A stretch of DNA of 64,000 nucleotides from Candidatus Poribacteria bacterium (lineage in GTDB: Bacteria > Poribacteria > WGA-4E > WGA-3G): positions 1,874,725 through 1,938,724 of the forward strand of contig OY764016.1 of assembly GCA_963667805.1 (NCBI GenBank). The letters are read 5' to 3'. Position numbers and translations under genes: made by a program. The number at the start of each line of letters is the position of its first letter. Within the stretch, counting starts at the first letter, position 1. The notes under the pieces were generated by a model that made no database searches, had not been told where the DNA came from, and saw only the letters and a program-made list of their open reading frames with translations. Of the stretch, positions 6,295-59,888 are shown piece by piece.

Positions 6295-6297
6295 TAT

Positions 6298-31626: not shown

Positions 31627-31676
31627 ATTAGCGGTCTTTCTCATGACACATTGACTTGCAAATGTCTAAGTAGTGT

Positions 31677-33237: not shown

Positions 33238-34482
33238 TCAAACCGATTCTTGGAGTTTTGGATGGTTGCCAAAGATCTTCACAAGAGAGCGGACTAATTT
33301 TTCGGGATCGTGGCGGATAACGTTCATCTGAACGCCGCCTAACCATGTGCCGAATTCAGTGACGACCATATCCCGGATGAGGTCCGCCTCAATCACCTGG
33401 ATCCCCTGCGCTTCAAGGTTCTCCTGCTCACGATCATAAGAGACTTGCACTTTTGAAGCGTCTGCGACTTGCATTGTCTCAACAGACAGAGACGAAATAT
33501 CTTTCGCTAAGTTCAGCACGTCCATGAGGTGCTGCGTATCTTCATAGAGCATTGAAAGCCCTTCCTCGGAAAGTGAACGAATTCGAGTCAACTGCGAAAC
33601 CAGTTCCTTCCGAACATACTCTTGCATGATTTCCGTTGGCGCGGGTTGGTTATTCACCACGACGTAATTGAGCGGAATCTTGGCATGGTCCAAAATAGCA
33701 TTAACGTGATCCGTGACCGCATAACCATCGGTTTCACCCGGCTGTGTCATAACGTTACAGACATAGATCTTCATGGCGTCTGAACGCTGAATCGTTTCCA
33801 CGACCCCTTTGATAACCAGGTTCGGCATAATGCTGGTATAAAGGCTTCCGGGACCGATGATGATGACATCGGCGTTAATCAGGGCATCTACGGCTCCTTC
33901 ATGCGCTTGGCATTCATAGATTGCATCGGGGGAATGGTGTGTTTTTCCGTTCTCGCGGGGTTCAAAAAAGACACGCTTGATCGGCTCACGATTTTCTCGG
34001 ATAGGGATCGTAGATTCGCCGCGAACGATCTCTCCATCGGTGAGTTCGGCACACAAAACGGTATAATCCAACGTAACAGGGATAATCTGTCCACGCACTG
34101 AGAGTAATCTGGATGCCGCCTGGATGGCTTTCGGGAAGTTTCCTTCAAACTTTTCCGTCAGTGCTGTTAACAATAGATTGCCGACCGTATGTCCACCGAG
34201 TTCCCCATTGCTTGAAAAACGATATTCAAAAAGCCCTGCGAGTTCATCAGCATCGGACAATGTGAACAGGAGTCTCCGGATATCGCCCGGTGGGAGCATG
34301 TCAAACTCTTCAACGAGCCGTCCTGAACTTCCACCATCATCAGAAACGGTAACAATTGCCGCCAGACTATCCAAATCAATGAGGTGGTCTCTACCTTTCT
34401 CCAAATCAGCGTAGTGCTTAATGCCACTCAGCAACGCGGATAAACCACTCCCGCCTCCGATGCAGGCAAGCTTCAAAGCCAT
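33238..34482 (-). CDS. gluconeogenesis factor YvcK / CofD-like (UPF0052) family protein
   Basis: GGGSG...TVSDDGGSSG...LPPGDIR motifs. Confidence 0.8.
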   Translation of the reverse strand: MALKLACIGGGSGLSALLSGIKHYADLEKGRDHLIDLDSLAAIVTVSDDGGSSGRLVEEFDMLPPGDIRRLLFTLSDADELAGLFEYRFSSNGELGGHTVGNLLLTALTEKFEGNFPKAIQAASRLLSVRGQIIPVTLDYTVLCAELTDGEIVRGESTIPIRENREPIKRVFFEPRENGKTHHSPDAIYECQAHEGAVDALINADVIIIGPGSLYTSIMPNLVIKGVVETIQRSDAMKIYVCNVMTQPGETDGYAVTDHVNAILDHAKIPLNYVVVNNQPAPTEIMQEYVRKELVSQLTRIRSLSEEGLSMLYEDTQHLMDVLNLAKDISSLSVETMQVADASKVQVSYDREQENLEAQGIQVIEADLIRDMVVTEFGTWLGGVQMNVIRHDPEKLVRSLVKIFGNHPKLQESV

Positions 34483-34507: not shown

Positions 34508-34810
34508 AATCTGAGCGGGGTTTCCGTTGTCAACCCCGATCCAAAATTAATAAAGCACTTTTTTGAGGGTATGAAAGGTAAACCTAACTCAAAACCGCCA
34601 TGTCATGAATCTGAGCGGAGTGTCCGGTGTTAATCCCAGTCCAAAATTAATAAAGCACTTTTTTGAGGGTATGAAAGGTAAACCTAACTCAAAACCACCG
34701 TGTCATGAATCTGAGCGGAGTGTCCGGTGTTAATCCCGATCTAAAATTAATAAAGCACTTTTTTGAGGGTGTGAAAGGTAAACTCGACTTAAAACTGTCG
34801 CGTAATAACC
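34508..34810. repeat. three tandem copies of a 100-bp repeat (copy 3 diverges at its 3' end)
   Basis: Unit AATCTGAGCGGAGTGTCCGGTGTTAATCCCGATCCAAAATTAATAAAGCACTTTTTTGAGGGTATGAAAGGTAAACCTAACTCAAAACCACCGTGTCATG starts at 34508, 34608 and 34708. Confidence 0.9.
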
Positions 34811-42776: not shown

Positions 42777-44717
42777 ATGCATCAAGACAGACGACACCTC
42801 ATCATTGGCACAGCAGGACACGTTGACCATGGAAAAACCGCGCTCGTCGGGGCACTTACCGGTATGGAAACCGATCGGCTCAAGGAAGAGCAAGAACGTG
42901 GTTTGTCTATTGAGTTAGGGTTTGCCTATTTTGACCTCTCGGACGACTCGCGGGCAGGTATCGTTGACGTTCCAGGTCATGAAAAATTCATCCGAAGCAT
43001 GCTCTCCGGGGCTTACGGTATGGATATCGTCCTCTTCGTCGTTGACGCGAAAGAAGGCGTTCAGGAACAGACCCTCGAACATCTGGCAATCTTAGATCTG
43101 CTCGGCATCTCAAACGGTATCCTCGTCATGACGAAATCCGACTTGGCGACTGCTGATGAATTGGCAGAAGCAACCGAAATGACGCAGGAGATGCTCATCG
43201 GGACAAGCCTTGAAGCCATCCCAACTGTGAGTGTTTCCGCATTAACCGGCGCAGGTATTGAAACACTAAAAGAGACCATCGTCAAACAGGTAGCACTCGC
43301 GACGGAAACCGAAGAAAACGATGGTATCCCGAGATTATACGTTGACAGGGTTTTCACCGTTCAAGGGTTCGGCGTTGTTGTGACAGGCACGCTCATCGGT
43401 GGATCGATCCAGCGAGACCAGCGGATGGTGATTCTTCCACAGGGGCATACTGTGCGGATCCGAGGGATACAGGTCCATAATGAAACTGCACCCGTAGCGC
43501 AAGCCGGACAGCGGACAGCAGTGAACCTTTCCGGCGTCTCTGCCCAGGACCTCCAACGCGGCGATGTCCTTTGCCCAATTGATTTCTCACAAGTGACGGA
43601 CAATATTGACGTGTCGATGCAAGTGCTGTCCTCATTTCCAAGGATACTTGAACATTGGACGCGTCTCCGGGCGTATCTCGGCACTCGCGAAATATTTTGC
43701 AGATTAATCCTACTCGTGGACGATGCCATTTTGCCGGGGGATACCATTCAGGTTCAACTCCGCTTAGAACAACCCATCCTAACGTTCAGAGGCGACAGAA
43801 TTATTTTACGCGATTTTTCAGCGCAATATACAGTCGGGGGTGGTGAAGTTATTAACCCATTTGCCCCAAAGCATAAGCGGTTCACCCCTGAAACCATCGC
43901 TACTTTAGCACAATGGGAAGAAGCCGATGATGCCCAGGTCGTGAACACTGTCTTAGAAAATAGCGAGTCACTCTGCGTGCCAGAGTCCTTCCTGCATTAC
44001 TATTTACCACAGTCACAGACGAACGTGAATGCGATCTTAACCGGCTTGGAAGCAGACGGGAAAATTGTGCGCTGGGATAAATCGGGCAGGTCGCCGCTCG
44101 TTTCTGATGCTGTTCGGACGGCAAATATCAAAGAGAAAATTATAGAAACGTTGACAGCATTCCATTCGGCAGAACCCCTCCTTGCCGGTCAAAATGCTTC
44201 ACAACTGCGTCGAGAACTCAAATTGGACGAAATCGGCTTTGAGAAACTCGAAAACCAACTCATTACCGAGGGGCAACTCGCCAAAGACGGCAATCTTCTC
44301 CGATTGGCATCTCACGAAATCCAGTTTTCCGAAGAGGAAGAAACCGCGAAGGAGAGACTCGAAAAACTATTCTTGGAAGCAGGTATGAATACACCCACTT
44401 TCAACGAACTCAGCACGCACCTTCCAGACTATACACCGCAGTTACTGGAATCCACGTTTTTCGCACTTCTGAACTTAGGGCAGTTTGTCAAAATAGCGGA
44501 TAACTTCTTTATCCACAAAACCGTTTTTGAGGAGATACAGGAATTATTAACCACTTACCTTCGCAAAAATGATACAATAACCGTTGCCGAATTTCGAGAA
44601 ATGGCACAAACTTCTCGAAAATATGCGGTGCCGTTTTTGGAATACTGCGATAGCCGGAACCTCACGATCCGAGACGGGAATATCCGTAAGTTGCATCCGC
44701 GGCACTTGCAGGCATAG
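42777..44717 (+). CDS. selB: selenocysteine-specific translation elongation factor SelB
   Basis: [22 protein letters not shown]-domain. 646 aa with C-terminal winged-helix region. Immediately followed by tRNA-Sec. Confidence 0.9.
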
Positions 44718-44734
44718 TTTGCAGTGTCCATGAT

Positions 44735-44828
44735 GGGGGAGGATAGGGTCCGGTGGCCCTACCGGTCTTCAAAACCGGCTTGTCCATGCAAGTGGATAGG
44801 TGGGTTCGACTCCCACCCTCTCCCGCCA
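44735..44828 (+). tRNA. selC: tRNA-Sec (anticodon TCA), 94 nt with 8-bp acceptor stem and long variable arm; CCA encoded
   Basis: GGGGGAGG...CCTCTCCC acceptor. Anticodon loop CTTCAAA. Extra arm CTTGTCCATGCAAGTGGATAGG. T-arm GGGTTCGACTCCC. Terminal GCCA. Confidence 0.85.
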
Positions 44829-45818: not shown

Positions 45819-46044
45819 AACTAACCCTCATTATAGCATTTAACACCGGTCCCATCTTCAATCGCGCCCTCTACATATTTCCGAGAAATTTTCAGACTTT
45901 ACATTAAATCCGATTTTTGATATACTAATGCCTGAAGCACACATTTTTGCAGCACTGCAAAATACCTCGCGTTTCCTTCATGACACGGTTTCTAAAGAAG
46001 TAAGAAGTTGGGATTGTCTCACCATCAGCACAAGGAGGGGGAAC

Positions 46045-47772
46045 ATGAACAGACATATTTTCTCTGAAGCATCAAACTGTTGTTCACACATAAAACGCGT
46101 AAGTTTCATTATCTTCGTCGTAAGTTTAGTATTTGCTGCGACACCGAGTCTCATCACAGCTGGAACCACACCGGATATCCAACCCGTCACGAACGAGATG
46201 TTACTCTCATCACAAGACGACCCTGAAAGCTGGCTGATGTATGGACGGGACTACAGAAGCTGGCGATATAGTCAACTCACACAGGTTAACACTGAAAACG
46301 TCAAAAAACTCGTCCCGAAATGGGCATTTCAAATTGGAACGCCCTTCGATAAGTTTGAATGCACGCCACTTGTCGTCAATGGTGTGATGTTCATCACCAC
46401 TCCCTACAGCACTATCTACGCTGTGGACGCAAGAACCGGCAAGGAAATATGGCGGTATGATTATGAACTCCCTGACGATTTAGCGATCTGCTGCGGTATG
46501 GTGAACCGTGGTGCTGCTATCTTGGGCGATAAAATCTTTTGGGTAACGCTTGACGCACACCTCCTCGCCCTCGATGCGAAGACCGGCAGGGTCCTCTGGG
46601 ACAGAGTGGTCGGAGATCTGACGAACGCTGAATCCCTCACTGTCGCCCCGTTAGTCGTCAAAGACAAAGTGATCGTCGGCATATCAGGCGCAGAATACGG
46701 CATCCGAGGCTATATCGATGCGTATTACGCCGAAACAGGTGAACAGGCATGGCGATTTTACACCGTCCCGTCAAAAGATGAACCCGGCGGCGACACATGG
46801 GAAGGCGATTCATGGATGACAGGTGGCGGATCCGCTTGGGTCACAGGTTCCTACGACCCGGAATTGAATCTCGTCTACTGGGGAACGGGTAACCCGGCAC
46901 CAGACTGGAACGGTGCTGTCCGGAGAGGCGACAACCTCTATACCGACTGTATCGTTGCGTTGGATGCCGATACCGGAAAACTCAAATGGTATTTTCAAGC
47001 CACACCCCACGATCTATGGGATTGGGATGGCGTGAGTGAACCCGTCCTGATCGATATGGAGATAGATGGCGCACCGGTCAAAGCGTTGATGCAAGCGAAT
47101 CGCAACGGCTATTTCTATGTGCTTGATAGAACCAACGGAAAATTTCTATACGCAAGCACTTACTGTGAACAGAACTGGTCGGCTGGACTCGATGAAAACG
47201 GACGTCCTACCGTCCTACCCGGCGTGTCCACCTCAGAAGAAGGCACGATTCGCGTCTGTCCCGGCGTTGAAGGCGGCAAGAACTGGCCCCCTTCAGCCTA
47301 TAACCCGCTCACAAATTACCTCTATATCCCATCGTTGGAACTCTGCGGCTCCTATCATCAAGGGCGCGTTTTCTATGTGAAAGGGCTACCCTACCTCGGA
47401 AGTGGTATGACAGCAGACAGGGACGAAGCTGGCAACATGGAGATGTGGGGACATATCAGTGCAATCGATGTTTCTACAGGTGAGATTAAATGGCGCCACA
47501 AAACGAACTTCCCACAATGGGGTGGATGCCTCACAACGGCAGGAGGTCTCGTTTTTGCGGGGGATTTAGAGGGCAGATTCATGGCACTCTCGGCAGAAAC
47601 CGGCGAAGTGCTTTGGGATTTTCAGACTGGATCCGGGGTTCTCGCACCCCCCATTACCTATCGACTCGACGGTGTCCAATATGTTGTGATAGCGTCAGGT
47701 GCTGTGAAATATGCTGAAGTCAACGCTCGCGAAGGCGGAACCCTTTTTGTGTTCGCGCTCTTTGATGAATAG
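46045..47772 (+). CDS. PQQ-dependent alcohol/methanol dehydrogenase, XoxF/ExaF-like (signal peptide; vicinal CC; DWD motif)
   Basis: AGGAGG RBS at the MNRHIF start. Signal peptide. Eight-bladed PQQ propeller W-motifs. Vicinal disulfide AICCG. Asp-x-Asp (WDWDG) at the position recalled as lanthanide-type. Confidence 0.85.
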   Translation: MNRHIFSEASNCCSHIKRVSFIIFVVSLVFAATPSLITAGTTPDIQPVTNEMLLSSQDDPESWLMYGRDYRSWRYSQLTQVNTENVKKLVPKWAFQIGTPFDKFECTPLVVNGVMFITTPYSTIYAVDARTGKEIWRYDYELPDDLAICCGMVNRGAAILGDKIFWVTLDAHLLALDAKTGRVLWDRVVGDLTNAESLTVAPLVVKDKVIVGISGAEYGIRGYIDAYYAETGEQAWRFYTVPSKDEPGGDTWEGDSWMTGGGSAWVTGSYDPELNLVYWGTGNPAPDWNGAVRRGDNLYTDCIVALDADTGKLKWYFQATPHDLWDWDGVSEPVLIDMEIDGAPVKALMQANRNGYFYVLDRTNGKFLYASTYCEQNWSAGLDENGRPTVLPGVSTSEEGTIRVCPGVEGGKNWPPSAYNPLTNYLYIPSLELCGSYHQGRVFYVKGLPYLGSGMTADRDEAGNMEMWGHISAIDVSTGEIKWRHKTNFPQWGGCLTTAGGLVFAGDLEGRFMALSAETGEVLWDFQTGSGVLAPPITYRLDGVQYVVIASGAVKYAEVNAREGGTLFVFALFDE

Positions 47773-47864
47773 TTTTCAGTTATCGGTTGTCGGTTATCAG
47801 TTAAGAGACGCTTCGGTTGATTCAGAAATCTCTTTAACCGAAAACCAATAGATAGGAGGGTACC

Positions 47865-48734
47865 GTGAAACACTATATTCTCTTGTGGGCAGCACTTTTC
47901 ATACTGTCTGCTCCGATGTTGCACACTGCAGACGCTGTCGATGCCTTGGAAGAAATTCGAGCAAAGGGTGTCTTAACGGTCTGTATGGACATCCGAAATC
48001 TGCCTTACTCCAACGTTGATCCCGAACTTCCTGGATTATATGTTGAGATCGCTCATCTACTGGCAGCGGAACTCGGTGTTAAGTTGGAATTCCACTGGCT
48101 TAGCACCCTCCGTGATAGTCTGCTGGCTGACATGATACGCGGACATTGCGACTGTGTGATCGGAGTTCCCATTGAGGAGCGCGCCATGGCTGAAGCGATT
48201 CAATTGGGGGAAAACGTTGATTTCTCTACGCCCTTCTACGGGACGGGATACGTATTGGTAAAACAGAAAAGTAATCAAGCGTCACCGAAAACGCTGGAGG
48301 ACATTAAGTTAGAAACGATTGGGACAGAAGCGGGTTCCATCGCAAGCGATGTCCTTCGACAGACGGGATATAAGCGTCGCGTTTATCGCTCACAAATTGC
48401 CGTCTTGGACGCTCTCAAGAAAGGGCAAATTGCTTACGGATATGTCTGGTCAAATATTGGGTGGTTGATTGAAAAGGGTTCCCGAATTCAGCAGCCAGAA
48501 CACACGGATACTGTTTATCCTGAATTAGAGATTGTTAAAGAATACACCCCTGAAGCGCGTCTCCGTTGGAATATCGCTATTGCTTTTGGCAAAGATACAT
48601 CAACACGAGAAACACGTGAACTTCAAGATGTTGTTAACACAATTATCGAACAGAAATGGAGTGAAGAAAAACTCAGAGAACTCTCTGAAAAGTATTATTT
48701 GCCTTACTTCGCTCCGTTTCAGGAGGATGAATAG
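47865..48734 (+). CDS. quinoprotein-dehydrogenase-associated periplasmic binding protein (MxaJ/XoxJ-like, SBP family 3)
   Basis: GTG start with AGGAGGG RBS. Signal peptide. Family-3 solute-binding fold. Lies between the PQQ dehydrogenase and the cytochrome c. Confidence 0.65.
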   Translation: MKHYILLWAALFILSAPMLHTADAVDALEEIRAKGVLTVCMDIRNLPYSNVDPELPGLYVEIAHLLAAELGVKLEFHWLSTLRDSLLADMIRGHCDCVIGVPIEERAMAEAIQLGENVDFSTPFYGTGYVLVKQKSNQASPKTLEDIKLETIGTEAGSIASDVLRQTGYKRRVYRSQIAVLDALKKGQIAYGYVWSNIGWLIEKGSRIQQPEHTDTVYPELEIVKEYTPEARLRWNIAIAFGKDTSTRETRELQDVVNTIIEQKWSEEKLRELSEKYYLPYFAPFQEDE

Positions 48735-48736
48735 AA

Positions 48737-49660
48737 ATGATGTATTATTCTACCCGCGTTCGAACCTCTACCGTCCGAATAACGTGGTGCATTCTTCTCC
48801 TCTCTCTGGGGCTAAGTCTCTTCTTTTTTTCTGTCGTAAATGCCCAAAACTTAGAGGTGGATATTGCCCCCGAAGCACCGAGAGACGTGAGTTATGACGA
48901 AGACGTTATCGACGGCGCGTTCTACTTCCGTTTGATGTGTTGGAATTGTCACGCCCAACAAACACGCGGTGGCAGAGCACCCGATCTCTTTAAACCGCAG
49001 TGGCTTTACGGATGGACTGATGACGGTATCTTCCAGACTGTATTCAACGGACTTCCGGGGACCGAGATGCAGAAGTTTGGTGGCAAACTTTCTGATGAAG
49101 CAATTAATATGATTGTTGGCTACGTTCGTTCGGAACAAGCGAAAGCGGCGGGGGTCTCTTTAGAGGAAGCGAAACCGACTCAGGACTGGACGCCATATAT
49201 GGAAGGCGATGTCAAAGCAGGAGAAGCCATTTTCTTCTCAGAAGGGTACGCTTGCGGTAAGTGCCACACAGTTCACGGGAGAGGTGCCACCGGAACAGGC
49301 AGCGAAATAGGTCCCGATATGACGTATGTCGCTCGCACCCGTTCACCGCAATTCATTGTCGAGTCTATTCTCAATCCACGCGCGTATATCGCGCCTGAAT
49401 ATGAAATGATTACCATTTTCACGAAAGACGGGCAGGAAATCACAGGTAGGAAGCGCCACCAATACGATCACAGAGACAGATTAGACCCTGAAACGATCCA
49501 GCTCCTCGACAATTCTGGGAAGTTGTGGACAACCTACCTCATAAAGGATATAAGGAGCACCAGCGTTCCACAAGCAGGTGTTATGCCTGAAAACTTCGCA
49601 GATATTCTGTCAGTCAAACAGATGCACGACCTTTTGGCGTATCTATTCACGTTGAAATAA
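48737..49660 (+). CDS. diheme cytochrome c (XoxG-like partner)
   Basis: Two CxxCH motifs (CWNCH, CGKCH) and an N-terminal signal-anchor. Confidence 0.75.
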   Translation: MMYYSTRVRTSTVRITWCILLLSLGLSLFFFSVVNAQNLEVDIAPEAPRDVSYDEDVIDGAFYFRLMCWNCHAQQTRGGRAPDLFKPQWLYGWTDDGIFQTVFNGLPGTEMQKFGGKLSDEAINMIVGYVRSEQAKAAGVSLEEAKPTQDWTPYMEGDVKAGEAIFFSEGYACGKCHTVHGRGATGTGSEIGPDMTYVARTRSPQFIVESILNPRAYIAPEYEMITIFTKDGQEITGRKRHQYDHRDRLDPETIQLLDNSGKLWTTYLIKDIRSTSVPQAGVMPENFADILSVKQMHDLLAYLFTLK

Positions 49661-49718
49661 CCGTCAGCAGTATGGCTGACTGCTATTCTGTCATTTAACC
49701 GCAAGGAAAATTAAAAAG

Positions 49719-50522
49719 ATGATTGGTGTGATTATTAATGGGGCATGTGGCCGTATGGGACGGCTTATTATCCGAGGTGTTACTGAACAAACCGATATGG
49801 AAATCGTCGGCGCGATTGAGTTCCCGGAACACCCACAGCTCGGGAGTGATGCCGGTGTTGTTGCCGGCATCGGAGAAATAGGCGTCGCGGTTACAGGTAA
49901 CCTTGAAGATGTACTTGACAACGCAGATGTTGTCATCGAATTCTCGAAACCTGAGGCTACTCTGGACCACCTCCGACAAGTCGTCAATGCCGACAAAGCG
50001 ATGATAATTGCAACAACCGGATATGACCCTGATGAACTCGCCACTGTCGAAGAACTCGCATCACAGATCCGTTGCGTAATGGCACCCAACATGAGTCTCG
50101 GTGTCAATGTGATGATTCAGGCACTGGAATTAATCGCCAAAGCCCTCGGGGACGATTACGACATTGAAGTGATAGAGGCACATCACAATCACAAAGCAGA
50201 TTCACCCAGCGGCACGGCACTCCGCTTAGCGGAAACCGTTGCTCAGGCATTGGGGCGAGATTTAGATGAGGTCGGTGTCTACGGTCGCCACGGTATCGTT
50301 GGCGCAAGACCGAAAAAACAGATAGGCATTCATGCAGTTCGAGGGGGTGATATCGCCGGCGACCATACAGTATTGTTCGCAACAGAGGGTGAGCAACTCA
50401 GCGTCGTCCACCGAGCACACAGCCCAGAGGCTTTCGCTAAAGGCGCAATCCGCGCAGCGAGATGGGTCATCGACGCCCCTAAAGGATTACATGATATTAG
50501 CGAAGTCCTGTTTCAGGAATAG
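49719..50522 (+). CDS. dapB: 4-hydroxy-tetrahydrodipicolinate reductase, copy 1
   Basis: GACGRMGR NAD(P)-binding motif and EAHHNHKADSPSGTA DapB signature; 267 aa. Confidence 0.85.
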   Translation: MIGVIINGACGRMGRLIIRGVTEQTDMEIVGAIEFPEHPQLGSDAGVVAGIGEIGVAVTGNLEDVLDNADVVIEFSKPEATLDHLRQVVNADKAMIIATTGYDPDELATVEELASQIRCVMAPNMSLGVNVMIQALELIAKALGDDYDIEVIEAHHNHKADSPSGTALRLAETVAQALGRDLDEVGVYGRHGIVGARPKKQIGIHAVRGGDIAGDHTVLFATEGEQLSVVHRAHSPEAFAKGAIRAARWVIDAPKGLHDISEVLFQE

Positions 50523-50593
50523 TAGACACGCCTCTATATCAAAACCGTCAAAGCTCGAATCCACGTTATTTAACCGCAAGGAAAATTAAAAAG

Positions 50594-51391
50594 ATGATTC
50601 GTGTTGCTGTCACCGGTGTTTGCGGTCGTATGGGACGTTGCATCACGCGCGGCATTGCCCAACACCGCAATATGCAACTCGTTGGAGCCGTCCAATACCC
50701 CTCACATCCACAGATCGGAAGTGATGCGGGTGTTGTCGCCGGTATCAGTGAGATTGGCGTAACCATTACAGGCAAACTTGACGACGTACTTCACCGTTCA
50801 GATGTTGTCATCGAATTTTCAAAGCCTGAAGCAACCCTGGACCACCTCCAACACGTCGTCGATGCAGATAAAGCCATGGTTCTTGGAACAACCGGTTTTA
50901 CCGCAGACGAACTCGCGACCCTCCAAGCGCTTGCATCACAGATCCGTTGCGTAATGGCACCCAACATGAGTCTCGGTGTCAATGTAATGATACAAGCATT
51001 GGAATTAATTGCCAAAACCCTGGGAAATGATTATAATATTGAAGTGATAGAGGCACATCACAATCACAAAGCAGATTCACCCAGTGGCACAGCACTCCGT
51101 GTAGCGGAGACGCTTACCACGGCACTTGAGCAAGATTTAGACGAGGCGTGTGTTTACGGTCGCCACGGCATCGTTGGCGCAAGACCGAAAAAACAGATAG
51201 GCATTCATGCAGTTCGAGGGGGCAACATTGCCGGGGATCATACAGTGTTGTTCGCAACAGAGGGTGAACAACTCAGCGTCATCCATCGAGCACACAGTCC
51301 AGAGGCTTTCGCCAAAGGTGCAATCCGCGCAGCGGAATGGATAATCGACGCGCCTAAAGGGTTACACGATGTTAGCGAAGTCCTGTTTTAA
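50594..51391 (+). CDS. dapB: 4-hydroxy-tetrahydrodipicolinate reductase, copy 2 (tandem paralog)
   Basis: About 75% identical to copy 1, with the same signature. Same conserved 25-bp leader before the ATG. Confidence 0.85.
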   Translation: MIRVAVTGVCGRMGRCITRGIAQHRNMQLVGAVQYPSHPQIGSDAGVVAGISEIGVTITGKLDDVLHRSDVVIEFSKPEATLDHLQHVVDADKAMVLGTTGFTADELATLQALASQIRCVMAPNMSLGVNVMIQALELIAKTLGNDYNIEVIEAHHNHKADSPSGTALRVAETLTTALEQDLDEACVYGRHGIVGARPKKQIGIHAVRGGNIAGDHTVLFATEGEQLSVIHRAHSPEAFAKGAIRAAEWIIDAPKGLHDVSEVLF

Positions 51392-53405
51392 CCGATGCCT
51401 GATACCTCACACCTATTTTATTCTGCTATGCATCGGTATTCTATTTATGGTCGGTTGTGAACAAACAGCGTCCCAAAAACAGGTCCGGTACGAGTGGAAA
51501 ACTGTCATAGAAGGCGATTGGAGTTCACACCTCTACGATGTTCATTTCGTTTCTGAAAAGCGGGGTTGGGCAGTTGGTAACGCCATAGATGTACTTCCTG
51601 GCGCCGATTTTGGAGAAGGCGCGGAAAGTCTCATCGTTCACACAAACAACGGTGGCGAAACATGGCACAGACAACACAGCGGCGTTTTCAACAAACCCCT
51701 CCGAAACGTGTATTTTCGTTCAGCGTCAGAAGGCTGGTGTATCGGTGAAGGCGGCGTTCTGATCCGGACAACCGACGGCGGGGAAACCTGGCAGCACATT
51801 GAAACCGGGACGGAAAACAACCTGCATGACCTCTTCATAGGCAATGAAACGGGTTGGATTGTGGGCGACTGGGGCACAGTGCTAAAAACAACCGACGGTG
51901 GGCAGACGTTCGCACAGATTGATGGACAGGCGTTCGGCAGAAAGTCATTGAAAGGTGTCCATTTCGTAGACGAAAACCGAGGATGGGTCGTTACCTATAG
52001 CACACCGACCTCCGAAACAAAATCAGGAAAGGCCGGCTATATCTATCGGACAACCGATGGTGGAGAAACTTGGGAGGTCCAATTCGTGACAGAAGCCGCC
52101 CTGTTCAACCTCCATTTCATAGACAAACAAACGGGTTGGGTTGTCGGTGACCGACGGAGCATCTTCCTGACAACCGACGGTGGGAACACATGGGACTTCG
52201 TCACTCGCGGAACCAATGAACGCCATAAAAGTAGCTACGGTCAACCGGATTATCTCGGCAATGAGCCGCTGCATACCTTTACACTTTACGATCTTGACTT
52301 TATAGATGCCCAAAACGGTTGGATTGTTGGCGACTTAGGCGTGATTCTCCACACCGCGTCGGGTGGAAAAGAAAAATGGAAACATCAACGTGGGGGTCCG
52401 CGTTTCCACAACAGCGCAGATGCCGTCCTGTTAGGTGTTGACTTCGTTTCCAAGCAAATCGGTTGGGCAGTCGGTGAAAACGGCACCATCCTGCACACCC
52501 GCAATGGGGGTGTGACTTGGGAATCCCAATCCAGTCCGAGCCATCTCTTGGTAGGTGTATGCGCCATCTCGCCCGATGAAGGATACGTTGTCGGTGACCG
52601 GGGCGCGATTCTACGAACCGAGGATGGAGGGGTCGTATGGAACGCGCAAGACAGCCGCACGACTGAGTGTTTTGGGGCAACGCATTTCGTGTCATCACAA
52701 ATAGGATGGGCAGTCGCAGAAGCCGGCGTCGTCCTGCATACCACAAATGGTGGCACGGTATGGCAACGTCAAGTTTCAGGGACACAGCAGGACCTGCTCA
52801 GTGTTTTCTTTACAGACGAAAAAAATGGATGGTGTGTCGGAAGCGGCGGTGAAATCATCCACACAGATGATGGTGGGAAAACATGGCAACCGCAAAAGAG
52901 CGGAACCCATTGGAATCTGTTTGACGTTTATTTCATCTCCAAACGACGCGGTTGGGCAGTCGGTCTGAACGGAACAATACTTTTTACAACTGATGGCGGT
53001 ACCAATTGGAAGTTGTTACCGCTCAGCCAACGCTACCCGTCTTTTCTATTGGATGCCGTCACCTTCGTCACCCCAGAGAGAGGCTGGGTCGTAGGATTAG
53101 ATTTACGCAGTTTAGGTATGGATGGTTTGATCCTACATACCGAGAATGGCGGTAAAACATGGCAACGTCAAGAGAGCCATACCCGCAATTTTCTTGACGA
53201 TGTATTTTTTCTATCAGAAACAGAAGGCTGGATTGTTGGAAAAGAGGGACTTGTCCTCCATACAAAGAATGGTGGACAAAACTGGAGACCGCAGCATACA
53301 GATACCAGAACGGATCTGAAGGCTATCCACGTAAGCAGTACAAATAGCGGATGGGCAGTTGGGCAAAATGGAACAATTCTCAGATATGAAGCCGTTCCGT
53401 TTTAG
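51369..53405 (+). CDS. BNR/Ycf48-like (PSII_BNR-type) repeat lipoprotein
   Basis: 678 aa. Lipoprotein-like signal ...LLCIGILFMVGC. About 12 repeats of GW(A/I)VG...T(T/D)DGG(x)TW. Overlaps the dapB copy 2 3' end by 23 nt. Confidence 0.75.
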   Translation: MLAKSCFNRCLIPHTYFILLCIGILFMVGCEQTASQKQVRYEWKTVIEGDWSSHLYDVHFVSEKRGWAVGNAIDVLPGADFGEGAESLIVHTNNGGETWHRQHSGVFNKPLRNVYFRSASEGWCIGEGGVLIRTTDGGETWQHIETGTENNLHDLFIGNETGWIVGDWGTVLKTTDGGQTFAQIDGQAFGRKSLKGVHFVDENRGWVVTYSTPTSETKSGKAGYIYRTTDGGETWEVQFVTEAALFNLHFIDKQTGWVVGDRRSIFLTTDGGNTWDFVTRGTNERHKSSYGQPDYLGNEPLHTFTLYDLDFIDAQNGWIVGDLGVILHTASGGKEKWKHQRGGPRFHNSADAVLLGVDFVSKQIGWAVGENGTILHTRNGGVTWESQSSPSHLLVGVCAISPDEGYVVGDRGAILRTEDGGVVWNAQDSRTTECFGATHFVSSQIGWAVAEAGVVLHTTNGGTVWQRQVSGTQQDLLSVFFTDEKNGWCVGSGGEIIHTDDGGKTWQPQKSGTHWNLFDVYFISKRRGWAVGLNGTILFTTDGGTNWKLLPLSQRYPSFLLDAVTFVTPERGWVVGLDLRSLGMDGLILHTENGGKTWQRQESHTRNFLDDVFFLSETEGWIVGKEGLVLHTKNGGQNWRPQHTDTRTDLKAIHVSSTNSGWAVGQNGTILRYEAVPF

Positions 53406-53455
53406 TACCAGCGGGGAAACCCAAGGGGTGTAGAGAAACATTACACCGAAAACGC

Positions 53456-53597
53456 AGCCTGCAATAATACGCAGAAATACGCAGAAATACCCTATCAAAA
53501 ACCCCAAGCAAAAACACGCGGGGGTTTTTCTTCAACTCGAACATGGAAACCGTTAAAGCACAGACTGCATCGCTTAGCCGCAAGGAAAAATTAAAAA
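53456..53597 (+). repeat. intergenic repeat modules B, C, D, E
   Basis: CAGCCTGCAATAATACGCAG, GAAATACCCTATCAAAAACC (identical 20-mer also at 59848), CCCCAAGCAAAAACACGCGGG, and TTAGCCGCAAGGAAAAATTAAAAA ending at the ATG. Confidence 0.7.
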
Positions 53598-54341
53598 ATG
53601 ACAGACGAACAGAAATATCTATTTGATCTGCAAGGCTTTATTGTCCTGAAGAGTGTTATCCCCCAGGCAGTCGTCGAGGCGTGTAACGCTGTGTTAGATC
53701 AGTACGAGAATATGCCACCCGACGACTATCCACCCCCGCTGTGCCTCGGCACACAGCGAACGGAGAAAGAACTCTACATCTCTAACATCTTAGAGGCAGA
53801 CAGTGTATTCAATACGCTGATCGACATTCCGGAGGTCCTGGACGTAATTCAAGGCGTAACCGGGGGGCCGTATCGACTCAATCACACCTACACAATCTAC
53901 CGGTGGGGAGGTGGTTATACCGGGTTGCACATGCACGGAACACCGATTATCCCGAAATGCCAATATCATTGTAAAAACGGAGAGATGGTATCAACGTTAA
54001 CAAAAGCGGTCTTTCCGATGCTGGATTGTGATATGGAGGACGGGTGCTTCGCTGTTATACCGGGGGCACATAAGAGCAATTTCCCAAAACCTTGGGGAAG
54101 CCACCCCGATGAAAATCCTGTGCTGACCCCGATCCCAGCAAAAGCAGGAGATGCCATCATTTTTACAGAGGCACTTACACACGGGTCTGTCATCAATGTT
54201 TCCGATAAACCGCGTCGGACCCTCTATTACTGCTACAGCATCGGCTATATGCCAGATTGGGGCGGCCAAGGTCTACATTTCAGCCCGAACGTTATGGACA
54301 GCCTCAGTGAATCCCAACAGTCAATCCTTCATCTAAAATAA
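53598..54341 (+). CDS. phytanoyl-CoA dioxygenase (PhyH) family dioxygenase, copy 2
   Basis: 247 aa; His/Asp ligands (RLNHTYTIY... HMHGTP..., HGSV). Confidence 0.65.
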   Translation: MTDEQKYLFDLQGFIVLKSVIPQAVVEACNAVLDQYENMPPDDYPPPLCLGTQRTEKELYISNILEADSVFNTLIDIPEVLDVIQGVTGGPYRLNHTYTIYRWGGGYTGLHMHGTPIIPKCQYHCKNGEMVSTLTKAVFPMLDCDMEDGCFAVIPGAHKSNFPKPWGSHPDENPVLTPIPAKAGDAIIFTEALTHGSVINVSDKPRRTLYYCYSIGYMPDWGGQGLHFSPNVMDSLSESQQSILHLK

Positions 54342-54360
54342 TTTTTAACGATGGACTCCT

Positions 54361-54533
54361 GGACTGCCCTCCATTTCATTACGGGCAGGTTTTTGGTGAG
54401 TCCACAACTACCATAAGGATATGTACGGCATATCATCAAAAAAACAAGCCTGCAACAACGGCGCAGGCGACTCGAACACGCAAGCCGTTAAATTCGCGGA
54501 CCCTATGACTTATCCGCAAGGTAAATTTAAAAT
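54361..54533 (+). repeat. intergenic repeat modules A, B, E
   Basis: GGACTGCCCTCCATTTCATTACGGGCAGGTTTTTGG (matches 29722-29757). GCCTGCAACAACGGCGCAGGC hairpin. TTATCCGCAAGGTAAATTTAAAAT ending at the ATG. Confidence 0.7.
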
Positions 54534-55703
54534 ATGATTACAATCGCAGAACGGTTAGAAAAACTTCCACCCTATCTTTTTGTAGACCTGCGCCAAAAAA
54601 TGCAGGCAGCACAAGCGCGCGGTGTCGATGTGATTAGCCTCGGTATCGGTGACCCGGATCTTCCAACACCTGACCCAGTTGTTGAAACCTTATGTAGTGC
54701 GATTCAAAATCCCGATGATGCAGACAGGCACCGCTACGGCTGCGACAACCCTGTTGACGATTTTCCACAGGCAGTCCTCGACTTTTACCAGCACCGTTAC
54801 GGGGTCTCCTTATCCGATGATCAGGTAGCGACAACGCTCGGTAGTAAAGACGCAATTGTCAAAATGGCACTCGGTATCCTCAATCCGGGCGATATTGGTA
54901 TAGCGGCGAGTCCAGGCTACCCTACCTACAATATCGGACACGTCTTCGCCAGTGCAACGAGCTACTATGCTCCGCTTCTGCGAGAAAATGATTTCTATGT
55001 TGACTTTGACGTTATTCCTGATGAAGTGAAACGACTTGCCAAAGTTCTCTGGATCAACTATCCAAACAATCCGACAACCGCCACTGCCAACCTCGATTTT
55101 TTCGAGCGTGCCGTGGAGTTTGGTAGACAAAATAACATCCTGATCGCGCACGACAACGCCTATAGTGAGAACACCTACGACGGTTATCGCTCACCCAGTA
55201 TATTGCAGGTGGAAGGTGCAGCGGAAGTTGCGGTTGAGTTTTTCTCATTAAGCAAAGCGTTCAACATGACAGGCTGGCGCTTGGGATTTGTCGTTGGCAA
55301 CCCAACTGCTGTTAGTGCAGTCAAAACGGTGAAAGATAATATCGACAACGGTTCACTCCGCTCACTTCAATTCGCCGGTGCAAAGGCACTTTCAATAGCG
55401 GACGAGATTACCCCCGCAATCAATGTCGTTTATCAAAAACGCCGCGATATGGTGGTAGATGCCCTGAGAGACAGCGGGTGGACACTCGAGAAGCCGAAAG
55501 CAACAATGTATGTTTGGGCACCGGTCCCTGAGCGTTTTAACGGTTCAAGTCGTGCCTTTGCGACGGCATTGCTTGAAGAAGCGGGTGTTGTTGTAACACC
55601 AGGTCTCGGATATGGACAGTGGAGCGAAGGCTATTTTAGAATCTCGCTGACATACCCAGACGGAGTGATTGCGGAAGCCATTTCGCGTATTCGCGCTTTT
55701 TAA
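54534..55703 (+). CDS. class I (fold-type I) PLP aminotransferase, LL-diaminopimelate aminotransferase (DapL)-like
   Basis: KLPPYLFVDL...GVDVISLGIGDPDLPTP N-terminal pattern and SLSKAFNMTGWRLG PLP-lysine region. Linked to the dapB genes. Confidence 0.7.
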   Translation: MITIAERLEKLPPYLFVDLRQKMQAAQARGVDVISLGIGDPDLPTPDPVVETLCSAIQNPDDADRHRYGCDNPVDDFPQAVLDFYQHRYGVSLSDDQVATTLGSKDAIVKMALGILNPGDIGIAASPGYPTYNIGHVFASATSYYAPLLRENDFYVDFDVIPDEVKRLAKVLWINYPNNPTTATANLDFFERAVEFGRQNNILIAHDNAYSENTYDGYRSPSILQVEGAAEVAVEFFSLSKAFNMTGWRLGFVVGNPTAVSAVKTVKDNIDNGSLRSLQFAGAKALSIADEITPAINVVYQKRRDMVVDALRDSGWTLEKPKATMYVWAPVPERFNGSSRAFATALLEEAGVVVTPGLGYGQWSEGYFRISLTYPDGVIAEAISRIRAF

Positions 55704-55790
55704 TCTTACCTTGCGGTTCGGTCAGGTGGATTAATAATCTCACGTGCCCTTTCGTATATCCGCCTGCTCCGTTGTTGCAGGCTGCCATCA
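55698..55790 (-). repeat. intergenic repeat modules E and B in inverted orientation
   Basis: CTTACCTTGCGG (rc of CCGCAAGGTAAG) and CCTGCTCCGTTGTTGCAGGC (rc of the module B hairpin). Confidence 0.65.
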
Positions 55791-58800: not shown

Positions 58801-59766
58801 GCAGGCAATTACAGGTTCCTGGTCACGGCATTCCGTAAAGATTGGCCCTATACACATACGCCAGCAGTGGTGGATTTCAGTATATCACCACCCCTCTGGA
58901 CGCGGTGGCGGACTTATCTTCCAACAGTCATCTTTATGACCGTTGTTCTAACGCTCATTGGTCGTCTGATTGTAAACCGTCGCCATACCCTACAACTGCG
59001 TAATGAAGTGCGTCAAAGGGAAGAAGCGGAGATACAACGTATCCGTGCTGAACTGAGCGAAGCGCAGAATATTCAGATGGGACTTCTACCGACCGAAGCC
59101 CCGGATACGAAAGGGTTTGATGTCGCAGGTATGTCGGTCCCCGCAACACAGGTAGGTGGCGACTTCTACGATTACCTCACCGTCGCGAACGGACAGACCG
59201 CTATCGCGGTCGCAGATGCCGCCGGAAAAGGATTAAGAGGCGCAATGAATGCCGTGCTAACGAATGGGATGCTATATGAAGTCTCGCGTTTCAAGTCCGA
59301 ATCGGGTATCATTCTCACGGATCTCAATGCCGGGTTAGCCCCACGCATGTACGGACCGAGTTTCATCGCGCTGAACCTCGCTGTGCTTGATGAAAATAAT
59401 AAACGCGTTGACTATGCGAACGGCGGACAACCCTATCCTGTTCTTAAGCGAGGGGCGGAGATCATTGAAATTGAAAATAGCGATCTTCCACTTGGCAGTA
59501 TGAAAAAGGTGGAGTATGAGTCGGTCACCTTCGATTTAGATGCGGGTGACGTCCTAATTTTTCATAGCGACGGTCTGATTGAGGCGCTCAATACAGAAGA
59601 GGAAATGTATGGCACGGAACGTTTAAAGGAAGTGGTTTCAGAAATTCCTGATGGTTTCACTGCGACAGAAGTTATCCAAAGCCTCGTTGACGATGTTCAA
59701 AACTTCGTGGGAGAAGCGGAGCAATACGACGATATGACAATCGTTGTTATCAAAATCCCCTTTTAA
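55894..59766 (+). CDS. giant sensor: periplasmic Reg_prop/Y_Y_Y beta-propeller region - TM helix - coiled coil - PP2C-type (SpoIIE/RsbU-like) serine phosphatase
   Basis: 1290 aa with signal peptide. Reg_prop-like repeats. TM LPTVIFMTVVLTLIGRLIV. Coiled coil REEAEIQRIRAELSEAQNIQ. Phosphatase motifs GGDFYDY, DAAGKG, FHSDGL. Confidence 0.8.
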   Translation: MKNAILILSIVCLTLLVCVETESEQILTYTVADGLIGPVVPVVFQDSRGDLWFGSDRGGVSRFDGIRFESYIGSPDTSENAPTSNVGPGALLGQTRQIVEDKWGHIWFLTHFRAENSGRVSRFDGSSINLIGTGNSLLVDDHGDIWVGENQQLTKYITPGVQRLPQAHPNEIIGEDLLRSRDFTINIIFQSADGTIWIGGSEGEEQPHGVILSFRENRWVEDPLKITDSDNANEKTDDGTQRVHPNIGFTRYDLSNLNAVNAIETIGEDTFGNLWFGGYNLLLRFDGKVFEKILPLAWGQSGSIGSRPASIQRLASIQNDTKNRVWFSDGRTTRWWHDSQHGNLLGFLELEDAWGNLWFTDEAGAHQYDANLTQLPDRINSGLGVEGIHTIYEAIDGKLWFGHDNGVTSFDPTPAISTHAGLGTNRVRMIFEDSRGYLWFSVPGGVARYDAESEELTTHIFRVSSVQNDSSRASQTDNRTMERVRPLRTEIEKIFEVGGHVWFIDEPGVGGSSTRLRYTFFRYANGKFGQVSIPIQTAIGPGGERSDTNTNVLVHEGEHTWMAFGGHLFRADATGLLRLTNTGFQRIPFQEIGPNTTPTPIPPITFGAAAITDVYRDSNGRLWVHLDNGESLRYPKAINTATNRPSKPETLPLKATTLLKIASGSKWFFNAVTGKLILWSDTELGSPLPLDGESSTLPIAVWKNPRAENNRITFLFPDALKTYHGTTLISLESIELAELQDSLTTQDGVLWLATSRGVIRYDGEKAKTYTTKEDGFLVDNVKDVMEDSRGNIWFATWGGGTVRYDGETFYNLTTKDGLTHNNISKIHESSNKDIWFTTEGGVTQYTPTRGGLPECRLTSLESDKIYTDLSSSLTLPSRGTKILNIQGISPLREGLSYRFKLIGLDTPTWTNVSAQEFSLLATGAGGTSDAWTPSTTSVSTPQHTMRDSGIVQELQNQDGILRIRYTGLKAGNYRFLVTAFRKDWPYTHTPAVVDFSISPPLWTRWRTYLPTVIFMTVVLTLIGRLIVNRRHTLQLRNEVRQREEAEIQRIRAELSEAQNIQMGLLPTEAPDTKGFDVAGMSVPATQVGGDFYDYLTVANGQTAIAVADAAGKGLRGAMNAVLTNGMLYEVSRFKSESGIILTDLNAGLAPRMYGPSFIALNLAVLDENNKRVDYANGGQPYPVLKRGAEIIEIENSDLPLGSMKKVEYESVTFDLDAGDVLIFHSDGLIEALNTEEEMYGTERLKEVVSEIPDGFTATEVIQSLVDDVQNFVGEAEQYDDMTIVVIKIPF

Positions 59767-59888
59767 TTTTTCCTTGCGGATCTTTAATTATACCTTGCGG
59801 AGAAAGGACGTGCGTTGGAACTATTAGATGCGTTCCTCAAATCTGAAGAAATACCCTATCAAAAACCCTGCACCGTTGTTGCAGGCTA
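59761..59888 (-). repeat. intergenic repeat: two inverted module E copies, module C, and inverted module B hairpin acting as minus-strand terminator
   Basis: TTCCTTGCGGATC and TACCTTGCGGAG (rc CCGCAAGG...). GAAATACCCTATCAAAAACC. CCTGCACCGTTGTTGCAGG. Confidence 0.7.
59858..59885 (-). terminator. rho-independent terminator for the minus-strand kinase/nucleotidyltransferase gene (CCTGC-AACAACGGT-GCAGG + GTTTTTGAT on minus strand)
   Basis: Hairpin with T-run when read on the minus strand, 48 nt past the stop at 59933. Confidence 0.6.

Follow-up and report, generated by a model that had tools for sequence, protein, structure and literature searches.

A tandem dapB duplication in sponge-associated Candidatus Poribacteria and a candidate division of cofactor use between its copies

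Genes and leader elements at the locus

The window, a 64,000-nt stretch of DNA from the sponge-associated Candidatus Poribacteria, contains two tandem dapB open reading frames (copies 1 and 2), followed by genes for a BNR-repeat protein, a PhyH-family protein and an aminotransferase, all found where an earlier note on this DNA had placed them. The features are listed below.

49695..49718, plus strand: start-proximal leader TTAACCGCAAGGAAAATTAAAAAG, 5′ of dapB copy 1
49719..50522, plus strand: dapB copy 1, 267 aa; conserved housekeeping-type 4-hydroxy-tetrahydrodipicolinate reductase; E34, A98; TIGR00036
50570..50593, plus strand: leader copy before dapB copy 2, 100% identity to the copy 1 leader
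50594..51391, plus strand: dapB copy 2, 265 aa; accessory paralog; T7, V9, C16, I21, Q34, G98; TIGR00036
51369..53405, plus strand: BNR/Ycf48-like double-propeller probable lipoprotein; PF14870, 261 bits
53406..53573, no strand: intergenic mosaic insert made up of short repeat modules, 5′ of the PhyH leader
53574..53597, plus strand: leader variant TTAGCCGCAAGGAAAAATTAAAAA before PhyH, 86% identity
53598..54341, plus strand: PhyH-family 2OG-oxygenase-fold protein, 247 aa; PF05721, 49.9 bits (gathering threshold 22)
54342..54509, no strand: intergenic repeat-module mosaic; contains the hairpin GCCTGCAACAACGGCGCAGGC (54448-54468)
54510..54533, plus strand: leader variant TTATCCGCAAGGTAAATTTAAAAT before the aminotransferase
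54534..55703, plus strand: class-I PLP aminotransferase, 389 aa; from a divergent sister group of TIGR03540/PRK09276
55697..55716, minus strand: inverted leader copy over the aminotransferase stop codon (GCT TTT TAA TCTTACCTTGCGG)

The back-to-back dapB pair was found to be real and intact. Both proteins far exceed the curated TIGR00036 equivalog cutoff of 122 bits (302.2 bits for copy 1, 292.1 bits for copy 2), contain the Pfam DapB_N and DapB_C domains, and match the DapB structures of E. coli (1ARZ, 229 bits) and P. aeruginosa (4YWJ, 261 bits) over their full length. The two-domain layout, the GxxGxxG dinucleotide-binding loop (GACGRMG in copy 1, GVCGRMG in copy 2) and the HH..K catalytic motif are shared with these enzymes, whereas the presence of two tandem copies, instead of one, is unlike known bacterial DapB. 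The GxxGRMG loop and the catalytic ExHHxxKxDxPSGTA motif, which corresponds to E. coli His159, His160 and Lys163, are intact in 123/123 poribacterial DapB sequences; the motif reads EAHHNHKADSPSGTA in both window copies, and its HHxxK and PSGTA parts are invariant over all copy 1, copy 2 and single-copy genes. The copies share 209/265 residues (79%) and 75% of the first 300 nt of DNA, close to the roughly 75% identity estimated earlier, and the substrate/catalytic half is 89% identical with all catalytic residues kept. Judged by sequence, both copies thus retain everything that 4-hydroxy-tetrahydrodipicolinate reductase needs to bind its substrate and catalyse the reaction. An exact-sequence lookup of the copy 1 protein gave no match, and relatives were used instead; a search for literature on bacterial dapB paralogs returned nothing usable.

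The leader motif CCGCAAGGAAAATTAAAA occurs six times in the window at three or fewer mismatches, compared with 0.06 occurrences expected by chance. The sequences upstream of the two dapB copies match at 28/29 nt, with the leader core 12 nt before the ATG. The claim that all the genes are preceded by the same leader holds for both dapB copies, PhyH and the aminotransferase, but not for the BNR gene, which has no leader and whose start overlaps the stop codon of dapB copy 2. The description of the leader as repeat-borne was contradicted by relatives with short spacers, in which the leader or its core stands without inserted modules. At locus L006, 96-99% identical to the window over the whole cluster, the 32-nt spacer between BNR and PhyH contains the leader and lacks the repeat modules; between PhyH and the aminotransferase, the modules are missing from L030 and L002 (spacers of 29 and 19 nt), the AAGGTAAATTAAAAAT core being present in L030. 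The AAGGTAAATT..AAAAT part of the aminotransferase leader is native to that gene across relatives. It was also considered whether each spacer is filled by a MITE with the leader as its terminal repeat, as the inverted 8-mers that flank an insert between the aminotransferase and SpoIIE genes of L006 would suggest, but elsewhere the leader stands without any insert. Among relatives it is lineage-specific and patchy, preceding PhyH in 2/76 loci, the aminotransferase in 8/77 and the SpoIIE gene in 5/72, and it is found at further genes and 3′ ends too. The common leader is a lineage-specific, start-proximal element, consisting of a Shine-Dalgarno-like AAGGA and an A/T-rich spacer.

Scans of the 45.7-60.1 kb region returned sigma-70 promoters (23 versus 16±4) and intrinsic terminators (16 versus 15±4) at chance level, so that transcription units are not definable from them. 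Two terminator-like hairpins, at 54448-54468 and 59867-59885, were rejected, as both are repeat modules and their strand does not suit the genes around them. An Rfam scan of the whole window at the gathering threshold detected tRNA-Asn and tRNA-Sec only, and no lysine riboswitch or leader RNA near the cluster. No further DAP genes were found within the window.

The downstream genes and the proposed second role

The BNR gene overlaps dapB copy 2 by 23 nt, and at nearly every poribacterial locus examined dapB and BNR either overlap (about -19 to -25 nt) or are less than 100 nt apart; the BNR gene is probably translationally coupled to dapB. Its product has a lipobox-like MVGC. Assignment to the photosystem II assembly factor Ycf48/HCF136 was rejected, as the equivalog score of 264 bits falls below the cutoff of 326, and the protein is 678 aa long with repeated matches, whereas Ycf48/HCF136 is a single seven-bladed propeller of ~330 aa; the protein was classed as a BNR-repeat propeller lipoprotein.

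Orthologs of the PhyH protein are 66-89% identical across phyla, and those in Gemmatimonadetes, Latescibacteria and Chloroflexota (72-77% identical) lie in unrelated contexts with no dapB or aminotransferase neighbours. Foldseek searches with its model retrieved HygX, FtmOx1 and AndA (probability 1.0, TM 0.64-0.75), all generic family members. The double-stranded beta-helix fold, the distal His and the Arg that binds 2OG are shared with HygX (4XC9), FtmOx1 and AndA, H195 and R206 being invariant in the orthologs. In place of the His-x-Asp/Glu of other PF05721 oxygenases, 26/27 orthologs have His-x-His (H111-M-H113), and one has HxE; these residues were assigned by spacing and alignment, and the AF2 model is unreliable at 112-126. 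Use of a three-histidine metal site by this cross-phylum-conserved protein is a less likely possibility. PhyH genes make up >1.9% of poribacterial genes (PMC3909097), and the window PhyH is one of about a hundred such genes per genome, probably acting on an unrelated substrate.

A second PhyH-domain gene (27031/27109-27933, 30 bits) is convergent with a gene for a TPP enzyme (27930-29564), and short repeat modules lie nearby at 29815-30044. The location given in the earlier note was therefore correct, but the paralogy was not: pairwise comparison of the two window PhyH proteins gave no detectable similarity (E = 0.6), so they share only the superfamily. Neither could be identified with the characterised poribacterial 2′-O-methyl-nucleoside demethylase (PMC12709175), to which the PhyH protein of the dapB locus is 24% identical (E = 1e-7) and the other has no significant match.

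The best models for the aminotransferase are the two families of ‘direct’ LL-DAP aminotransferases, TIGR03540 (483.2 bits, cutoff 593.25) and PRK09276 (490.6 bits, cutoff 507), which lead the next NCBIfam model by ~120 bits, although both scores are below cutoff. The function of these families was reportedly assigned from genome context, not from assays. Characterised DapL enzymes (EC 2.6.1.83; Arabidopsis 2Z1Z, Chlamydia 3ASA, Chlamydomonas 3QGU) belong to the same fold-type I superfamily (PF00155), but matches to solved DapL are weak (2Z1Z 100, 6OXM 98, 3QGU 86 and 3ASA 88 bits), whereas the T. maritima aspartate aminotransferase 1O4S matches better (137 bits) and the uncharacterised 2X5D far better (299 bits). 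The description ‘DapL-like’ thus holds only in a loose sense, being borne out by the best-scoring models and weakened by the cutoffs and by the solved structures. Likewise, on the question of clustering with aspartate aminotransferases, the enzyme is nearer to 1O4S than to the solved DapL structures, but the TIGR03540-type family is nearer than either. Relatives with 44-49% identity pass the cutoffs, and out of 57 loci they lie directly downstream of dapF in nine and of dapB in two, those adjoining dapF or dapB scoring 598-620 bits. Scores for the window enzyme and for relatives 63-72% identical to it range from 464 to 499 bits, under 507 and 593; the non-poribacterial members of this group have unrelated neighbours, with no DAP genes among them. 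In Poribacteria, the aminotransferase is always three genes downstream of dapB, with BNR and PhyH between, and the whole region is collinear. With TIGR03540/PRK09276 as the nearest curated family, the aminotransferase belongs to a divergent sister group of the ‘direct’ LL-DAP aminotransferases. Because these relatives pass the cutoffs and some of them adjoin dapF or dapB, a DAP-pathway role, in which THDP is converted to LL-DAP, is plausible from family resemblance. The dapB plus dapL route to lysine proposed earlier is supported to that extent, and weakened by the below-cutoff scores. No usable literature was found on the DAP/lysine route of Poribacteria, on the characterisation of TIGR03540, or on PDB entries 6L1L and 2X5D.

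The earlier note had also hinted at a second role, such as production of a hydroxylated or cyclic amino-acid derivative. Spelled out, dapB copy 2, PhyH and the aminotransferase would form a module, co-regulated through the shared leader, that makes such a derivative of DAP or lysine. The order dapB-dapB-BNR-PhyH-aminotransferase is indeed kept across Poribacteria, and in the window the leader stands before all four enzyme genes. However, the functionally unrelated flanking genes (selB, lipA, a SpoIIE-type regulator and a GHMP/NTP-transferase) are as syntenic as PhyH; about half of the species have PhyH and the aminotransferase but no copy 2, while three loci (L056, L066, L075) keep the aminotransferase without PhyH. 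PhyH is unlinked to DAP genes in other phyla, its fold matches are generic and its family is abundant in Poribacteria; the substrate-site residues of copy 2 are unchanged; and the leader is patchy, lineage-specific and present at the SpoIIE gene as well. Such a module is therefore highly improbable. PhyH shows no sign of acting in the same pathway, so that most of the region is ordinary housekeeping DNA, probably best described as a collinear housekeeping stretch, rather than a dedicated biosynthetic cluster.

Distribution and age of the dapB duplication

The same tandem arrangement was found in independent ENA, JGI and NCBI assemblies, long-read chromosome-level MAGs among them. An expanded repeat is a general risk in metagenome-assembled genomes, and an assembly artefact had been named as an alternative, but the recurrence of the pair across independent assemblies, the congruent copy 1 and copy 2 phylogenies, and the mere 75% DNA identity of the copies leave it practically no chance of being correct.

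Two copies were found in 40 of about 82 loci; about half of the ~80 poribacterial species have two copies and half have one, and dapB abuts BNR in the single-copy loci. Phylogenies of the DapB copies, built by neighbour-joining only, placed poribacterial DapB as monophyletic relative to outgroups, with copy 1 and all single-copy genes in one clade. Copy 2, a TIGR00036 DapB like copy 1, is basal and mirrors the copy 1 topology, but forms a paraphyletic grade with short internal branches between, so that its single origin rests mainly on shared derived residues. The presence of Gln34 and Gly98 in 41/41 copy 2 sequences points to one old duplication, followed by repeated loss. The trees and residues thus indicate a single tandem duplication of dapB early in poribacterial history, after which every genome kept copy 1, whereas copy 2 was kept in about half of the species and lost many times. 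No decaying remnants of copy 2 were found in the single-copy loci with larger gaps (L082, L058, L067, L069, L047, L023). Its repeated loss indicates that copy 2 is dispensable.

Differences between the copies and cofactor use

Both copies are under purifying selection (omega 0.051 for copy 1 and 0.102 for copy 2 over 562 genome pairs), and copy 2 evolves about twice as fast, its dN exceeding that of copy 1 in 99% of the pairs. Within genomes, the copies differ by dN 0.174 and dS 1.09 in the N-terminal domain, and by dN 0.056 and dS 0.74 in the C-terminal domain. The dS of 0.74 rules out that gene conversion made the C-terminal halves alike, and the values indicate that the substrate/tetramerisation half is constrained.

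Six differences between copies 1 and 2 are fixed (N7T, A9V, L16C, V21I, E34Q and A98G), and all fall in the NAD(P)H-binding Rossmann domain; at a relaxed threshold, 11 of the 12 copy-specific sites fall at or before position 98. N7T and A9V belong to the glycine-rich loop, E34Q lies where beta-2 ends, and A98G is part of the GTTG motif. Position 34 is Glu in 81/82 copy 1 and single-copy sequences and Gln in 41/41 copy 2 sequences, while position 98 is Ala in 82/82 and Gly in 41/41, respectively. These positions align with E. coli Glu38 and Gly102. Compared with known DapB, copy 2 therefore has Gln where Glu or Asp is normal, and copy 1 has Ala in place of the usual Gly of the GTTG motif; the position of E. 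coli Arg39 is occupied in both copies by non-basic F/Y35.

In E. coli, Glu38 binds the ribose hydroxyls of NADH, and roles in NADH/NADPH binding have been described for Glu38, Arg39 and an Asn of the beta1-alpha1 loop, although the cofactor preference of DHDPRs is not yet readable from sequence alone (PMC5962572). Among DHDPRs with documented preferences, the E. coli enzyme is dual or NADH-leaning, and PaDHDPR of Paenisporosarcina prefers NADPH (PMC5962572). The poribacterial copies resemble these in that their copy-specific substitutions affect the two regions on which cofactor choice depends in those enzymes, the N-terminal loop and the beta1-alpha1 loop, but differ in being two paralogs in one genome, known from sequence, rather than single enzymes of different organisms.

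As the long-fixed differences lie in the Rossmann domain and the substrate-site residues are unchanged, we infer isozymes that differ in cofactor, rather than a new substrate; the two copies would reduce the same substrate, and give redox flexibility where both are present. The best explanation of the locus, which we regard as probable, is a single early dapB duplication that produced cofactor-differing isozymes in an ordinary neighbourhood, copy 1 being NADH-type and copy 2 more tolerant of NADPH. A fuller version is more tentative: a long-lived, cofactor-specialised pair, NADH-type through Glu34 in copy 1 and NADPH-tolerant through Gln34-Tyr35 and the altered glycine loop in copy 2, that would have had a single origin at the base of the sponge Poribacteria and been dismantled at least eight to ten times. 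Mixed tetramers might form, given the 89% identical tetramerisation/substrate half. A true NADPH preference of copy 2 is uncertain, because the Arg39 position is not basic in either copy.

The differences might instead mark tolerated change in an undifferentiated, redundant dosage duplicate, drifting under relaxed constraint toward loss. Such drift would fit the doubled dN of copy 2 and its disappearance from many independent lineages without remnants, and part of the N-terminal bias is expected under simple relaxation, since this domain is also the faster, less constrained half between orthologs. However, copy 2 has been retained at an omega of about 0.10 across deeply diverged species (dS >1), and drift would be expected to scatter changes, not to fix the same ones at cofactor-contacting sites, as seen at six positions that are invariant or nearly so in copy 1 and single-copy genes. 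A mere dosage duplicate is thus considered rather unlikely.

These findings call for caution in annotation, as the poribacterial ‘DapL’ is a below-cutoff relative of a family reportedly defined from genome context, and pathways should not be read from gene order in Poribacteria, in which PhyH genes are everywhere and the genomes are highly collinear. If the cofactor division is real, it would be a clear natural case of a single genome dividing an essential enzyme of DAP/lysine synthesis into an NADH-type and an NADPH-type isozyme, and the diagnostic positions 7, 9, 34 and 98 could help to predict or engineer the cofactor preference of DHDPRs. The repeated losses of copy 2 provide built-in evolutionary replicates, and the pair would, in that case, represent a natural replicated experiment in cofactor switching.

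The dapB cluster across Poribacteria

The earlier note's observation of a dapB-dapB-BNR-PhyH-aminotransferase cluster was essentially right, with the minor corrections given below, and the positions of its open reading frames (ORFs) were confirmed exactly:

Upstream of the cluster: PQQ-dependent dehydrogenase, MoxJ-like binding protein and dihaem cytochrome c
49719-50522, + strand: dapB c1, the upstream copy (ORF, 267 aa)
50594-51391, + strand: dapB c2, the downstream copy (ORF, 265 aa)
51369-53405: BNR-repeat protein (ORF, 678 aa), its start overlapping the c2 stop by 23 nt
53598-54341: PhyH-family protein (ORF, 247 aa)
54534-55703: class-I/II aminotransferase (ORF, 389 aa)
Downstream of the cluster: SpoIIE-phosphatase regulator (1290 aa)

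The rest of the window contained no other DAP or lysine genes, and no riboswitch was found in the window. Both DapB copies scored far above the curated cutoff of the dapB equivalog model (302 bits for c1 and 292 bits for c2; cutoff 122), each with both Pfam DapB domains. They share 79% identity in protein and, across the first 300 nt, 75% in DNA.

The nearest proteins belonged exclusively to Candidatus Poribacteria, symbionts of sponges and corals. Locus L006 (JAJEDB010000017.1) matched the window with 96-99% identity across the full cluster, and the order dapB-dapB-BNR-PhyH-aminotransferase-SpoIIE recurred in independent ENA, JGI and NCBI assemblies, as well as in many chromosome-level MAGs. 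This recurrence excludes an assembly artefact, a concern raised earlier, and the tandem dapB is thus real. Annotation of 84 poribacterial loci, using the window proteins as reference, revealed a shared, near-universal backbone, selB-lipA-dapB-BNR-PhyH-aminotransferase-SpoIIE-(GHMP/NTP-transferase, opposite strand), which differs between loci in two respects: whether it includes the PQQ-dehydrogenase block, and whether it carries two dapB genes (roughly half of the loci) or one (the others). In single-copy loci, dapB directly abuts the BNR gene and no c2 remnant was detectable. The block, a PQQ-dependent alcohol-dehydrogenase-type enzyme with the MoxJ-like binding protein and dihaem cytochrome c (45928-49660 in the window), forms an optional insert between lipA and dapB that 34 of ~82 poribacterial loci carry. 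The BNR-propeller lipoprotein gene begins within the end of dapB in most poribacterial genomes, with an overlap of 19-25 nt (about 80 loci; window 51369-51391), which suggests conserved translational coupling of dapB to an envelope lipoprotein gene.

In neighbour-joining trees, rooted by midpoint or by outgroup, all c1 and all single-copy genes formed one clade under either rooting. The c2 copies fell outside it, on longer branches, with an internal topology mirroring the c1 tree. Gln34 and Gly98 were present in all 41 c2 sequences, including the outlying loci L066 and L070. We read this combination as pointing to one dapB duplication early in the poribacterial lineage, followed by at least 8-10 independent losses, each of c2.

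The aminotransferase and the PhyH protein

The aminotransferase had been called DapL-like. Its best NCBIfam models were indeed both LL-DAP aminotransferase families, PRK09276 (490.6 bits) and TIGR03540 (483 bits), but the cutoffs of both were missed (507 and 593, respectively); the third-ranked model, an aspartate aminotransferase, reached 370 bits. The closest solved structures, 2X5D (299 bits) and 6L1L (261 bits), are both uncharacterised enzymes, and the orthologs carry generic names only at NCBI. True DapL structures were far from the window enzyme (86-100 bits), farther than the T. maritima aspartate aminotransferase (137 bits), so clustering with aspartate aminotransferases, named earlier as a refuting outcome, holds for these structures, but not for the top-ranked models. 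A metagenome scan gathered relatives at two identity levels. Those at 44-49% passed both curated cutoffs (598-620 bits) and, in 11 of 57 loci, lay directly downstream of dapF (9) or dapB (2); those at 63-72% scored 464-499 bits, as the window enzyme does, and had unrelated neighbours. The below-cutoff scores, together with the cutoff-passing relatives, make the aminotransferase, as judged from sequence, a diverged sister group to the 'direct' LL-DAP aminotransferase family, and a role in the DAP pathway is plausible.

The PhyH domain occurs in more than 1.9% of poribacterial genes, compared with less than 0.05% elsewhere (Kamke et al., PMC3909097), and two PhyH genes per 64-kb window is the background rate for Poribacteria. 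The second of them had been described as a paralog of the first, although pairwise comparison of the two proteins detected no similarity. Orthologs of the cluster PhyH, 66-89% identical and equal in length, were found in Latescibacteria, Gemmatimonadetes and Chloroflexota. There they lie among other PhyH genes, sulfatases, alginate lyase, gamma-glutamyltranspeptidase and PurU-like genes; neither dapB nor a DapL-like aminotransferase ever adjoins them. The position of PhyH in Poribacteria is conserved no better than that of unrelated flanking genes. From the high background rate, the DAP-free ortholog contexts and the unremarkable synteny, we conclude that PhyH lies outside any DAP-related pathway. 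The earlier interpretation is partly supported: the DAP context proposed for the cluster is plausible, but the second role, in which the additional DapB copy would act with PhyH and the aminotransferase, for example to make a hydroxylated or cyclic amino-acid derivative, is not borne out, because PhyH orthologs in other phyla lack DAP neighbours and both DapB copies keep the catalytic motif.

Sequence and fold searches with PhyH returned generic family members only (HygX, FtmOx1, AndA), and identity to the poribacterial nucleoside demethylase of PMC12709175 was only 24%, which led us to reject that assignment. The conservation of PhyH across phyla is unusually high. Residues 111-113 are His111-Met-His113, where the family standard is His-x-Asp/Glu; the cross-phylum orthologs carry HxH in 26 of 27 cases and HxE in one, with the distal His195 and Arg206 invariant. 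The protein may have a three-histidine metal site within a 2OG-oxygenase fold.

Leader, repeats and other features of the window

With up to 3 mismatches allowed, the window contained six copies of the leader CCGCAAGGAAAATTAAAA, where 0.06 would be expected. It lies 12 nt upstream of the ATG of both dapB copies, PhyH and the aminotransferase; it is absent before the BNR gene, to which the earlier claim of a shared leader does not extend. Its distribution among relatives is patchy: it was found upstream of dapB c1 in 16/40 loci, c2 in 8/40, single-copy dapB in 1/42, PhyH in 2/76, the aminotransferase in 8/77 and SpoIIE in 5/72, and at no locus upstream of selB, lipA, the PQQ dehydrogenase, the binding protein, cytochrome c or BNR. 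The leader is not a conserved regulon signal. When spacers with and without inserts were compared, the mosaic repeat modules proved to be inserted 5′ of the leader, which can occur without them, so its description as repeat-borne was inaccurate. The leader regions before the two dapB copies are identical at 28 of 29 nt, compared with a dS of ~0.7-0.9 within the genes, so that either the leader postdates the duplication or selection on it is very strong. Inverted leader copies (TTT TAA TnTTnCCTTGCGG, - strand) overlap the stops of the aminotransferase (55697-55716) and the SpoIIE regulator (59754-59800) genes. In L006, an insert in the aminotransferase-SpoIIE spacer is bounded by the inverted 8-mers CCTTGCGG and CCGCAAGG.

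Elsewhere, a 133-nt inverted repeat (6170-6296 / 14046-14175; 82% identity) surrounds ~7.8 kb encoding an ECF sigma factor and anti-sigma zinc-finger, MucB/RseB-like, CotH kinase-like and dienelactone hydrolase proteins, a segment that could be invertible or mobile. A DDE transposase fragment (31677-32279, - strand) between 31-nt inverted repeats (31660-32545) suggests an IS element or remnant. Another tandem gene duplication is a pair of Uma2-family putative endonuclease genes (21548-22156 and 22181-22768; 76% DNA identity over 191 nt), and three tandem 100-nt repeats (34508-34807; 83-91% identical) lie directly upstream of a CofD-like gene (33238-34482, - strand). At 42777-44828, tRNA-Sec (44735-44828) directly follows selB, indicating an organism with selenocysteine decoding machinery.

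Constraint and the cofactor domain of DapB

Pairwise dN/dS over 562 genome pairs was 0.051 for c1 and 0.102 for c2, demonstrating purifying selection on both copies; c2 is less tightly constrained, with a higher dN than c1 in 99% of the pairs. All 123 sequences kept an intact glycine-rich loop and an intact catalytic motif, ExHHxxKxDxPSGTA. Six positions are fixed differently between c1/single-copy DapB and c2 (N7T, A9V, L16C, V21I, E34Q and A98G), and at a relaxed threshold 11 of 12 copy-specific sites lie at positions ≤98. Within genomes, the nucleotide-binding half showed a dN of 0.174 (dS 1.09), and the substrate/tetramer half a dN of 0.056 (dS 0.74). Given that dS, it is constraint that keeps the C-terminal halves 89% identical, and gene conversion is ruled out.

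Alignment with the E. coli DapB sequence equates residue 34 with Glu38 and residue 98 with Gly102, consistent with the +4 offset of the match to the E. coli structure 1ARZ. Rossmann folds that accept NADPH have classically lost the acidic residue that ends beta-2. In the DapB enzyme (DHDPR), Glu38 forms hydrogen bonds to the 2′/3′-hydroxyls on the adenosine ribose of NADH, Arg39 interacts with the 2′-phosphate of NADPH, and, in another DHDPR, an Asn of the beta1-alpha1 loop touches the ribose; this N-terminal loop region governs cofactor choice, although sequence alone cannot yet tell the preference (PMC5962572). A basic residue at position 35 is absent from both c1 and c2. From the fixed differences at cofactor-contacting sites and the loss of acidic residue 34 in c2, we infer that the two copies would differ in cofactor preference and not in substrate.

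Glu37 (window about 49827-49829) was found in c1 of 38 of 41 two-copy genomes and in 17 of 41 single-copy DapB sequences. This bias could mean that c1 turns more acidic, NADH-like, once c2 is present, or could just be phylogeny.

The tandem pair is a modest variant of a well-known enzyme family, and its remaining interest is that of an old, repeatedly lost dapB paralog with fixed differences confined to the cofactor domain.
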